A stretch of DNA of 64,000 bases from NCBI GenBank assembly GCA_037189525.1, contig JBBCJC010000001.1, positions 800,001 to 864,000 on the forward strand, read 5' to 3'. The notes under the pieces are model-generated. The model saw only the letters and a program-made list of their open reading frames with translations. It had not been told where the DNA came from and made no database searches. Below, one piece after another: positions 2,627 to 5,348 of this stretch. The stretch comes from Gemmatimonadales bacterium (GTDB lineage: Bacteria > Gemmatimonadota > Gemmatimonadetes > Gemmatimonadales > GWC2-71-9). Within the stretch, counting starts at the first letter, position 1, and each line of letters opens with the position of its first letter. The translations under genes and the position numbers were made by a program.

Positions 2627-3880
2627 CTAGTGTTGGTACGCGTCCACGACCTTCGCCACTTCGCCGAGCTTGCTCGAGACGACGGGAATGTCGAAGAAGT
2701 CGGGTGATACGGCATCGGGCGTCTTGAGCCCGTGCGCCGTGACACAGATGACAACCTCGTCATCCGCCTTGAAATGCCCCTTCGCAGCGAGCGCCTGCGC
2801 CGCAGCAGCGGTGACACCGCCAGCCGTTTCCGTGAAGACGCCGGTCGTCTCGGCCAGGATCCGGATGGCCTTGATCAGGTCCTCATCCGAGACCGCCGCA
2901 GCCCAGCCGCCGCTGTCGCGGATGCATTGGGCCGCGCGGGCGCCGTCCGCCGGCGCGCCGATCGCCAGCGACTTGGCGATGGTGTTCGGAATCACCGGCG
3001 TGATCGTCGTGGCCCCGCTCTCGACCGCATTGACGATGGGCGAGCAGCCGGACGCCTGCGCTCCGTAGAGCCGCGGCGCCGGGCCGTCGACCAGACCGGC
3101 GGCGCGGAACTCGCCGAAGCCCTTGTACAGCTTCGACAGGAGCGACCCGCCGGCCAGCGGTGCCACCACCGCCGTCGGCAGCCGCCATCCGAGCTGCTCG
3201 GCGATCTCGAACGCCACCGTCTTGGAGCCTTCGCCGTAGTAGGGGCGCAGGTTGACGTTGACGATGCCCCAGGCGTAGCGATCCGCCAGCTGGGCACAGA
3301 GCCGGTTCACGTCGTCGTAGTTGCCCTTGATCTTGAGCACCCGCGCGCCGGCCACGGCCGAGGCGAGGATCTTGGCGGGCTCGAGCGTCTCGGGCACCAG
3401 GACCCAGGCCGGAATCCCGGCCCGCGCCGCATGCGCAGCCACCGCGATGGCGAGGTTCCCGGTGGAGGCGCAACCGATCGTGCCGAGGCCAAGGCCGGCC
3501 GCTGCGTTGATGGCACTGGCTACGACGCGATCTTTGAACGAAAGGGTCGGGTGGGCTACCGTGTCGTTCTTGACCCAGGCCCGGGCCACCCCGAGCAGGG
3601 CCGCCAACCGCGGGGCTTCGACCAGCGGAGTAAAGCCGGTGTCGAGGGAGTGGATCGGCTCGCCCAGGAACGGGAGCCATTCACGGTAACGCCAGAGCGA
3701 GGGGGCCCGATCCGCGATCTCTTCGCGGCTCGGCAGGCGCCGGCTCGGATCGTAATAGGGCTCGAGGGGTCCGAGACATTCCGGACAGATGGCCTGCGCA
3801 ATCGGCTCGTGCGAGATCCCGCAGTGGCCGCAGACGAGGGGAACCGGCTGGGTAGCAGCTTCGAGCGAAACGACGGTCAA
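2627..3880 (-). CDS. Threonine-synthase-family PLP enzyme (candidate O-phosphohomoserine sulfhydrylase)
   Basis: PTLSFKDR PLP-lysine motif, CASTGNLA, EGSKTVAFEIAEQLGW, N-terminal CxxC...CxxC. TTG start with a GGAG-type RBS. Confidence 0.88.
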   Translation of the reverse strand: MTVVSLEAATQPVPLVCGHCGISHEPIAQAICPECLGPLEPYYDPSRRLPSREEIADRAPSLWRYREWLPFLGEPIHSLDTGFTPLVEAPRLAALLGVARAWVKNDTVAHPTLSFKDRVVASAINAAAGLGLGTIGCASTGNLAIAVAAHAARAGIPAWVLVPETLEPAKILASAVAGARVLKIKGNYDDVNRLCAQLADRYAWGIVNVNLRPYYGEGSKTVAFEIAEQLGWRLPTAVVAPLAGGSLLSKLYKGFGEFRAAGLVDGPAPRLYGAQASGCSPIVNAVESGATTITPVIPNTIAKSLAIGAPADGARAAQCIRDSGGWAAAVSDEDLIKAIRILAETTGVFTETAGGVTAAAAQALAAKGHFKADDEVVICVTAHGLKTPDAVSPDFFDIPVVSSKLGEVAKVVDAYQH

Positions 3881-3968
3881 GGGACTCTCTCTCCATCCCC
3901 ACGCGTCTCTGGTCTCGAGGCACCGGCAAAGAAAATCGCCCGGGTGCCAAAAGACACGCGAGCGCGTG

Positions 3969-4020
3969 GCTTTTTAGCGTTTGTTTAGCGTGGCCGCAAT
4001 ATGCCGCAAATTGCCACGAG
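3969..4020 (-). ncRNA. SAM-II/SAM-V-like riboswitch aptamer
   Basis: Minus strand reads CUCGUGGCAAUUUGCGGCAUAUUGCGGCCACGCUAAACAAACGCUAAAAAGC. P1 is CGUGGC/GCCACG; loop UUUG and UUGCG can pair with 3' CAAA and CGCUAA, the SAM-II-type pseudoknot. It sits in the 5' UTR of a sulfur-related operon. Confidence 0.75.
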
Positions 4021-4037
4021 CCAACAATTGTCCCCAA

Positions 4038-4066
4038 ACGCTAACACTCGGCCCCGAATCGCGCAA
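4038..4066 (-). promoter_or_regulatory. Putative sigma70 promoter for the riboswitch/thrC-like operon
   Basis: TTGCGC-N17-TAGCGT on the minus strand; predicted start about 4031, just upstream of the aptamer. Confidence 0.5.
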
Positions 4067-4078
4067 GGGGGTGGGCTC

Positions 4079-4107
4079 TTGCGGCCGGAAGGGCCGCTCA
4101 CTAGCTT
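4079..4107 (+). promoter_or_regulatory. Putative sigma70 promoter for leader-asd-lysC
   Basis: TTGCGG-N17-TAGCTT; predicted start at about 4114-4115, coinciding with the leader ATG. Confidence 0.55.
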
Positions 4108-4114
4108 GTCGGCC

Positions 4115-4213
4115 ATGTTCGCAACGAAGCGCACCGGCACGACGTCCACGACCTTCATGACGAAGGGCGGCATGACCATGTGCAGCCGGCGCGGCGCGAA
4201 CGACACAGACTGA
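4115..4213 (+). CDS. Putative attenuator leader peptide, 32 aa, Thr/Met/Lys-rich
   Basis: MFATKRTGTTSTTFMTKGGMTMCSRRGANDTD: 9 Thr, 4 Met, 2 Lys; followed by an intrinsic terminator and then asd. Confidence 0.75.
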   Translation: MFATKRTGTTSTTFMTKGGMTMCSRRGANDTD

Positions 4214-4242
4214 CGCAAGTAACCAGACTGGATTGTCCAACG

Positions 4243-4278
4243 CCCCGCGCCTCGAACGAGCGCGGGGTTTTTCATTTT
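4243..4278 (+). terminator. Attenuator terminator hairpin upstream of asd
   Basis: CCCCGCGC-N9-GCGCGGGG followed by TTTTTCATTTT, ending about 15 nt before the asd start. Confidence 0.8.
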
Positions 4279-4292
4279 CGAGGAGCGTTCTC

Positions 4293-5348
4293 GTGACGTC
4301 CCGCATCCCTGTTGCCATTCTCGGTGCCACCGGCACCGTCGGCCAGAAGCTGATTCGCCTGTTGGACAACCATCCCTGGTTCGAAGTCGCCGTGCTCACG
4401 GCCTCCGATGCCAGCGCCGGGCGCCCCTACGCCGAGGTGGTGCGCTGGCGCGAGTCTACGGAGCTGCCGGAACGGGTCGGCAAGCTGGTGATCCAGTCGA
4501 GCACCACCGCCGCCGATGTCCCGCTCGCATTCTCCGCGCTCGACACCCAGGCCGCGGTCACCATCGAACCGATCTGGGCCAACGCGGGTGTGGTGATCGT
4601 CACCAACGCCAGCCCGACCCGGATGGACCCCGATGTCCCGCTCGTGGTGGCCGAGATCAACCCGGAGCACATCGGCCTGCTGCCGCATCAGCGCACCAAG
4701 CGTGGGTGGCCCGGCGCGATCGTCGCCAACCCGAACTGCACCACGACGGGATTGGTCCTTGCCTTGGCTCCGCTACATGCGCAGTTCGGGATCGACCGCC
4801 TGGTGGTGTCGACCATGCAAGCCATCTCGGGCGCCGGCTGGCCGGGAGTGGCGTCGCTCGACATTACCGGCAACGTGGTGCCCTACATCGGCGGCGAGGA
4901 GGAAAAGGTCGAGAGCGAAACCCGGAAAATTCTGGGTCGGTTCGACGGCACTGCGATTGCCGAGGCGCCCGTGATCGTGAGCGCGCACACCAACCGCGTA
5001 CCGGTCATCGATGGGCACACCGAAACGGTGTCGATCGGATTCACCAGGCGGGTGTCGCCCGAAGAAGTTCGTGAGGCGCTGGCCTCCTGGCGTCCGGATC
5101 CGCGGATCCAGGCGCTGCCGTCGACGCCAGATTATCCCGTCGTGGTCGACGACCGCCCCGATCGGCCGCAGCCGCGGCTCGATATCGAACGGGGACGCGG
5201 CATGACGGCGACGGTCGGACGCATCCGCCCCTGCCCGGTCTTCGACATCCGCTTCGTCGTGCTGAGCCACAACACGGTTCGCGGCGCGGCGGGCGCCACC
5301 ATTCAGAACGCTGAACTGCTGGTCAGCGAAGGGATCGTGGCGCGATGA
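4293..5348 (+). CDS. asd: Aspartate-semialdehyde dehydrogenase
   Basis: VAILGATGTVGQ Rossmann motif, ANPNCTT catalytic Cys, QAISGAG, RVPVIDGH, HNTVRGAAG. GTG start after GAGGAG. Confidence 0.95.
   Translation: MTSRIPVAILGATGTVGQKLIRLLDNHPWFEVAVLTASDASAGRPYAEVVRWRESTELPERVGKLVIQSSTTAADVPLAFSALDTQAAVTIEPIWANAGVVIVTNASPTRMDPDVPLVVAEINPEHIGLLPHQRTKRGWPGAIVANPNCTTTGLVLALAPLHAQFGIDRLVVSTMQAISGAGWPGVASLDITGNVVPYIGGEEEKVESETRKILGRFDGTAIAEAPVIVSAHTNRVPVIDGHTETVSIGFTRRVSPEEVREALASWRPDPRIQALPSTPDYPVVVDDRPDRPQPRLDIERGRGMTATVGRIRPCPVFDIRFVVLSHNTVRGAAGATIQNAELLVSEGIVAR

Follow-up and report, generated by a model that had tools for sequence, protein, structure and literature searches.

The question raised by this locus is what governs a threonine-synthase-like (ThrC-like) gene on the minus strand of a 64,000-nucleotide stretch of Gemmatimonadales DNA, referred to here as the window, and what that gene is likely to do. 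Working from the letters alone, the original prediction had placed a SAM-II/SAM-V-type riboswitch in its leader and proposed that SAM represses the operon. The reading that we favor, to which we give roughly three chances in four, is that of a SAM-II transcriptional OFF switch ahead of a MetM-MetO-MoeZ-type homocysteine operon, carrying an unusual extra element. The features concerned are collected in Table 1.

Table 1. Leader and operon features, given as positions in the window
Feature	Position	Strand	Basis
Putative promoter: TTGCGC, 17-nt spacer, TAGCGT	4066-4061, 4043-4038	minus	read from sequence
SAM-II aptamer	4018-3968	minus	RF00521 match and 66-aptamer alignment
P1 helix: CGUGGC / GCCACG	4018-4013 / 3994-3989	minus	97.5% paired in 66 aptamers
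L1 UUU	4010-4008	minus	
P2a helix: GGC / GCC	4005-4003 / 3970-3968	minus	93% paired, 8 double changes
P2b pairing: UUGC / GCUAA	3999-3996 / 3978-3974	minus	100% paired, invariant
Antiterminator: aptamer tail 3978-3970 / terminator loop and 3' arm 3953-3946	3978-3946	minus	predicted
Hairpin enclosed by antiterminator	3968-3964 / 3959-3955	minus	
Intrinsic terminator: 11-bp stem 3964-3937, UUUU loop, imperfect U tract 3935-3928	3964-3928	minus	
Rod hairpin of read-through RNA: 3969-3936 / antisense-like strand 3929-3899, U tract at tip	3969-3899	minus	
Shine-Dalgarno-like GGAG, TTG start	3894-3891, 3880-3878	minus	read from sequence
ThrC-like PLP enzyme, 417 aa, probable MetM-type homocysteine synthase	3880-2627	minus	PF00291, TIGR00260
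ThiS/MoaD-like sulfur carrier, 93 aa, C-terminal Gly-Gly, probable MetO	2616-2335	minus	PF02597
MoeZ-like ThiF and rhodanese protein	2378-1176	minus	PF00899 and PF00581

The aptamer, its class and its hosts

SAM-V aptamers have the same general pseudoknot fold as SAM-II, and the original prediction had suggested a covariance-model search against both families. RF00521 (SAM_alpha) matches the minus strand from 4027 to 3954 over all 79 model positions, with 34.8 bits (E 6.7e-6), which falls just below its gathering score of 36 bits; no Rfam family reaches its gathering score anywhere in the window. SAM_V (RF01826) is absent from the seven Rfam matches with E<=10 in the region 3500-4600, so that only the SAM-II half of the earlier call is retained. 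In the same search, RF01726 scores 16.4 bits. Orthologous aptamers pass the RF00521 cut-off, such as those of loci L008 (43.7 bits) and L014 (52.5 bits). The nucleotides that we take, after the solved SAM-II structure, to line the pocket (UUU in L1, which presumably forms triples with P2b as it does there, together with UUGC and GCUAAA) are identical to the Rfam consensus and invariant among the aptamers of relatives. The A that precedes the UUU of L1 is invariant except in four relatives (L117, L118, L125 and L130), which have a C there.

Pairing was assessed in an alignment of 66 aptamers, one picked per loop/tail type, in which most pairs never vary and therefore carry little information. 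For P2a, own and swapped partners scored alike in a test that allows any register (3.03 vs 2.93 bp); the column-wise count separated them. P1, the UUGC/GCUAA pairing, a second GCCACG at 3970-3965 and a CGCGUGG at 3905-3899, all described in the original prediction, lie on the minus strand as given. The UUUG/CAAA helix that it also drew does not hold up, as 79.5% of its cells are paired with no double changes in the 66 aptamers, and all four pairs are possible in only 62 of 124. The aptamer is very probably SAM-II; judged by its sequence, it should work like one, and SAM binding is predicted.

The relatives closest to the downstream ThrC-like protein are 62-69% identical to it and belong nearly all to Gemmatimonadota. 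Conservation in orthologous leaders, proposed earlier as a check, is found: of the 21 closest loci, 16 carry a same-strand aptamer upstream. The host genome has two further RF00521 copies above the cut-off, one preceding a MetH-like gene and the other an Hcy-methyltransferase/MTHFR gene. The Rfam match, these two copies before methionine-synthase-type genes and the 16 loci favor the proposal that a SAM-II riboswitch would repress the operon. RF00521 occurs at E<=0.001 in 71 of 101 sampled Gemmatimonadota genomes, and 66 pass the cut-off. Searches of the literature, which miss most subscription journals, found no published description of SAM-II in this phylum. SAM-II aptamers with terminators also occur around MetM-like genes in Acidobacteria loci (L028, L033, L034, L052, L060, L063, L064, L071, L074, L079 and L081), apparently in tandem in L028, L033 and L060.

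For comparison, leaders were drawn from protein-based loci, Rfam-based loci and two pattern scans, which fixed the aptamer and the first bases beyond it and left the distal strand free; the metagenome scan contributed at least 120 rows. A pattern found 224 aptamers, 203 of them unique, among the matches listed. A downstream gene was assigned to 154 of the 203 leaders, and the 49 unassignable ones were dropped. Methionine or homoserine genes lie downstream in 142 of the 154, if the MetM-like gene is counted as such (96 MetM-like, 25 MetH, 16 homoserine dehydrogenase and 5 Hcy-methyltransferase/MTHFR), and the remaining 12 precede a PanB-like or aminotransferase gene. A PanB-like gene (PF02548) stands directly under the aptamer in L012, L013, L015, L017, L023, L086, L127, L142, L143 and L144, often upstream of a MetM-like gene. 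An aminotransferase class I/II gene is first in the SAM-II-led operons of L005 and L007, which also hold a carrier, MoeZ and a MetM-like gene.

After the aptamer, 80 leaders begin GCC(A/U)CG or GCCCUCG, as in the window. In 75 of these (the long leaders), 84-101 nt separate the aptamer from the start codon, in keeping with the extended platform of about 90 nt envisaged in the original prediction; four are short (62-63 nt) and one has no assigned start. Start codons were assigned by script, with one corrected by hand. Dereplication at 80% distal-strand identity reduced the long leaders to 52, and the alignments hold 51, leaving out L275, which is from an unpublished genome. L101 and L129, also from unpublished genomes, are among the comparison leaders, and no conclusion rests on either. 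Since the leaders are related to each other, the counts overstate independence.

The downstream operon

The locus has the gene set expected of the MetM/MetO route, in that the ThrC-like enzyme is accompanied by a sulfur carrier and MoeZ and preceded by a SAM riboswitch. The best NCBIfam matches of the third protein are MoeB/MoeZ, one of them above its cut-off, and its real start is probably at 2330. By sequence, the operon looks like the MetM/MetO homocysteine route. It resembles the MetM/MetO/MoeZ(/Mec) route of Streptomyces albulus, as outlined in the available parts of the secondary sources (PMC12172450; GapMind 2026), in its ThrC-like enzyme, carrier, MoeZ and upstream SAM riboswitch, although the phylum is different, the carrier here already ends in Gly-Gly, and the likeness is judged by gene content.

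The earlier label of threonine-synthase-like stands at the level of the family, as the protein passes TIGR00260. That it is an ordinary second threonine synthase, and no homocysteine synthase, strikes us as improbable. Every source of names says threonine synthase: structure (PDB), homolog and atlas searches returned that label only and no named MetM sequence. MetM, however, is often misannotated as ThrC, according to the accessible part of GapMind 2026. The available text of PMC12172450 describes a cyanobacterial MetM homolog as mainly a ThrC/deaminase, and the genome has metY and a metX-like gene, so that a MetM route is not required. Against an ordinary threonine synthase stand the SAM control, the adjacent Gly-Gly carrier, which is near the ThrC-like enzyme in 65 of 80 related loci (flanks <=3 kb), MoeZ, near it in 23 of the 80, and a separate thrB-thrC pair elsewhere in the genome, whose ThrC is 32% identical to the ThrC-like enzyme. 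A MetM-type homocysteine synthase is the more likely function for the first gene. The metY and metX-like genes (the latter below its cut-off) lie at G000:C5:194976-197188 with no RF00521 match nearby, and may constitute a second homocysteine route under different control. A third ThrC-like gene of the host (L305, G000:C3:775116-776033) passes PRK08197, with no thrB adjoining among the frames listed. The match of the MetM-like gene in the relative L118 (G287:C1:351366-352613) contains a single in-frame TAA.

Transcription likely starts near a conserved ACAAY at 4031; in 48 of 51 leaders, this motif lies no more than 22 nt from P1. A strict promoter pattern matches in only 4 of the 51, and a scan with consensus promoters found none. 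Four public sequencing runs, with small shares, are available as contigs, a form that shows neither RNA ends nor RNA levels. The TTG start is shared by the near relative L116. On the opposite strand of the same intergenic region, before asd-lysC, positions 4118-4275 (+) hold a leader ORF of 32 codons, many of them for Thr, Met and Lys, and then a terminator-like hairpin at 4249-4268 (+). This is a probable ribosome-mediated attenuator, as judged from its sequence, that shares the intergenic region with the SAM-II leader. The leader ORF is kept in L116 and has diverged in L117, where it has a run of Thr codons; it was not seen before four other asd genes examined.

Terminator, predicted antiterminator and rod

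Directly 3' of the aptamer lies a GC hairpin followed by a U tract, a feature of terminator-type platforms. The terminator folds at -17.4 kcal/mol (z -3.3), and in the leader alignment its stem is 85% paired, with 28 double changes as against 7.9 in shuffled controls. The structure is present in 73 of 75 long leaders, in every one of the 4 short leaders and in 68 of the 75 other leaders of the SAM-II class, and in coding controls for the three groups in 1 of 58, 0 of 3 and 2 of 72, respectively. The predicted antiterminator folds at -14.5 kcal/mol (z -2.5), and 5 of 200 shuffles fold as well. Its pairing is kept at 92.6% over 51 leaders, yet without covariation. It beats shuffles at p<=0.05 in 51 of the 73 long leaders tested and in 18 of the 68 others; the window itself has p 0.15. 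Given this terminator and antiterminator, which the original prediction overlooked, the main control is probably transcription termination and not occlusion of the ribosome-binding site. Its remark that SAM-II and SAM-V aptamers usually sit close to the ribosome-binding site gives only part of the picture, since terminator-type SAM-II leaders are described in the accessible text of PMC1273637 and PMC2258182, where terminators follow many of the aptamers.

The leader is, in these respects, much like the SAM-II metA motif as presented in the available portion of Corbino et al. 2005 (PMC1273637), having a P1 and P2 pseudoknot with a conserved core, a place a few nucleotides past the probable start site and before methionine genes, and an intrinsic terminator thereafter. 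It differs in its host, since that motif comes from alpha- and other proteobacteria and Bacteroidetes, in its score just below the cut-off, and in the antisense-like strand after the U tract. The metZ and metA leaders of S. meliloti, as far as the available text of Scheuer et al. 2022 (PMC9373788) describes them, also join a SAM-II aptamer to a terminator, and the metA leader, which has about 74 nt from aptamer to start codon, is under multi-level control. There, however, the Shine-Dalgarno sequence is within the aptamer, whereas here it adjoins the start codon, and the terminator is predicted to be SAM-unresponsive, whereas here an antiterminator is predicted and the rod is conserved.

Some 35 nt 3' of the U tract constitute an imperfect antisense copy of the terminator region, which means that read-through RNA can form a rod of about 26 bp. 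This strand pairs with the 3' arm, loop and 5' arm of the terminator and with the P2a strand, in a 71-nt hairpin closed by CCACGCG/CGCGUGG; a fold of 3971-3895 has -43.2 kcal/mol (z -4.9), and none of 200 shuffles is as stable. The closing pair, proposed in the original prediction, is borne out by covariation and is the outer end of the rod. Among relatives, the rod has 23-33 bp (median 26), its longest uninterrupted helix has a median of 8 bp, and its last pair is at -15 from the start codon (10th-90th percentile -17 to -14). In the fitted alignment, both P2a-strand C residues find a partner in the rod in 49 of 51 leaders.

Expression platforms are, in general, poorly conserved, and covariation within them is rare. 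The distal strands of the 52 dereplicated leaders are 53% identical on average. With its own partner, the rod duplex has a mean of -43.7 kcal/mol, as compared to -38.0 with swapped partners, -33.3 with partners swapped between distant leaders, -28.3 for shuffled and -23.3 for coding controls. The rod beats shuffles at p<=0.05 in 50 of the 52 and distant swaps in 51; the own partner is the single best one in only 2. In a MAFFT alignment made without regard to structure, P1 and two rod helices are 84.7% paired, versus 35-48% when slid, with 24 double changes versus 8.8. An alignment fitted to the model, and hence biased towards the rod, gives 90.4% and 42 double changes. To illustrate the covariation, leaders with CCAC have a distal GUGG in 11 of 11 cases, and those with CCUC in 5 of 41, within a span fixed relative to the start codon. 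RNAalifold, run on the MAFFT alignment, returned P1 and one 3-bp hairpin and recovered neither terminator nor rod.

Of the 73 long leaders tested, 71 are rod-positive, compared to 7 of the 68 other leaders of the SAM-II class and none of the 4 short leaders, and the idea that the rod is a general SAM-II feature was rejected on the latter two counts. Four relatives with the same 5' platform are entirely without a rod. Of 24 further loci, four had no pattern match; the 20 tested gave five at p<=0.05, one at p 0.065 and 14 negatives. Previously unused leaders (L328, L330 and L340) show new compensatory rod variants, and the rod-positive further loci include such variants at the head of hom-metM operons. 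In L117 and L118, of the same genus, the rod is kept (p 0.02 and 0.003), with CCAC and an A.G mismatch at the covarying position in the best fold. As part of the platform, the covarying rod is new and well supported, its role being uncertain; the aptamer and the operon type were already known. No published description of the rod was found in searches that miss most subscription journals. A recent covariation study of whole riboswitches deals, in its available part, with fluoride, purine, SAM-I, ZTP, lysine, TPP and glmS.

Readings of the switch

In the scheme that we propose, the aptamer, itself evident in the sequence, would sense SAM. The SAM-bound pseudoknot would hold the tail (3978-3968), whereupon the terminator would form and transcription would stop at the U tract; without SAM, the tail would instead engage the loop and 3' arm of the terminator, and polymerase would read through. 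The read-through RNA would then fold into the rod, whose pairing is conserved and covarying, and would thereby take up the P2a strand. Because its distal strand is transcribed after the U tract, the rod should have no influence on termination, and its covariation implies selection on a later step, be it translation, processing or stability. The outermost pairs of the rod involve the P2a strand, a stretch that stays single-stranded next to the terminator unless SAM holds it, and this suggests a SAM-gated toehold. The rod may accordingly be a translation-ON form: SAM, in holding the P2a strand, would hide the toehold; the terminator hairpin would persist in leaky transcripts, and the G-rich strand left free in them would cover the start region. 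Such a SAM-gated second, translational layer acting via the rod is our leading guess as to its role, at somewhat less than even odds. The complete two-step switch, in which SAM decides termination and then, via the P2a toehold, the zipping of the 26-bp rod and the release of the start region, is possible, with the odds leaning distinctly against it.

Attenuation combined with translational control, as proposed for the last step, has precedents in the trp leader (TRAP) and the fmnP FMN riboswitch of Bacillus subtilis (PMC12288461, PMC11602163). TRAP, however, is a protein and fmnP has another aptamer, the translational layer here is a proposal, and the available text of the two papers describes no full antisense copy of the terminator.

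Energy calculations bear on the translational layer in several ways. The start region takes 9.6 kcal/mol to open in the rod state versus 13.4 in the terminator state, and the difference is at least 1 kcal in 42 of the 52. With shuffled distal strands, the region is closed just as well as with real ones (13.0 vs 13.4, p 0.88), and a selected anti-start sequence, being no better than shuffles by opening energy, was rejected. There is a small own-partner excess in the duplex of the distal strand with its own start region (-19.5 vs -17.7 with others, permutation p 0.0002; p 0.01 over a narrower stretch; coding control p 0.36). The U tract as an anti-Shine-Dalgarno was also rejected, as the terminator state does not make the Shine-Dalgarno sequence less accessible (accessibility lower in 13 and higher in 20 of 52). 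The terminator state is less stable than the free fold by a median of 6.7 kcal/mol, or 3.2 with P2a blocked. In the window, the rod exceeds the terminator state in stability by 8.9 kcal/mol even with P2a blocked, so that only kinetics could keep it from forming.

Two other roles for the rod leave the aptamer and terminator as they are, and each is unlikely, if a serious competitor. An RNA-processing or stability element, such as a site for RNase III or a hairpin protecting the 5' end, would suit the length of the rod, its fixed distance to the start codon and its thermodynamic preference over the terminator state. RNase III prefers about two helical turns, and the short uninterrupted helices speak against this role. 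SAM-II leaders of S. meliloti do affect mRNA stability, according to the accessible text of PMC9373788. The rod could, to the same degree of probability, be a passive insulator that soaks up the C-rich platform after read-through and so spares the ribosome-binding site, with no SAM dependence at that step. Such a role would agree with an outer end that stops just short of the Shine-Dalgarno sequence and with opening energies that give no selected anti-ribosome-binding-site signal against shuffles; but the four rod-less relatives manage with the same 5' platform, and the weak own-partner signal between distal strand and start region is also at odds with it.

Very improbable is the switch of the original prediction, in which the second GCCACG replaces the 3' strand of P1 and this swap is coupled to the pair on the ribosome-binding-site side. 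The pseudoknot-free minimum-energy fold of the window does use the swap (-36.0 vs -33.5 kcal/mol), but no more than 20 of 154 leaders allow full replacement, and the variable position covaries with the distal strand while P1 is invariant. The swap is, moreover, compatible with an intact terminator and is thus no antiterminator.

For the SAM-II class, these results add most of the sampled Gemmatimonadota genomes, together with Acidobacteria loci, to the range, and for the enzyme family they support reading such 'threonine synthases' as MetM-type enzymes. The locus provides a small, testable example of terminator-type SAM-II switching, in which the rod-less relatives are natural controls. If the SAM-gated translational layer is true, the leader would be a natural toehold-gated strand-displacement platform situated downstream of its own terminator.
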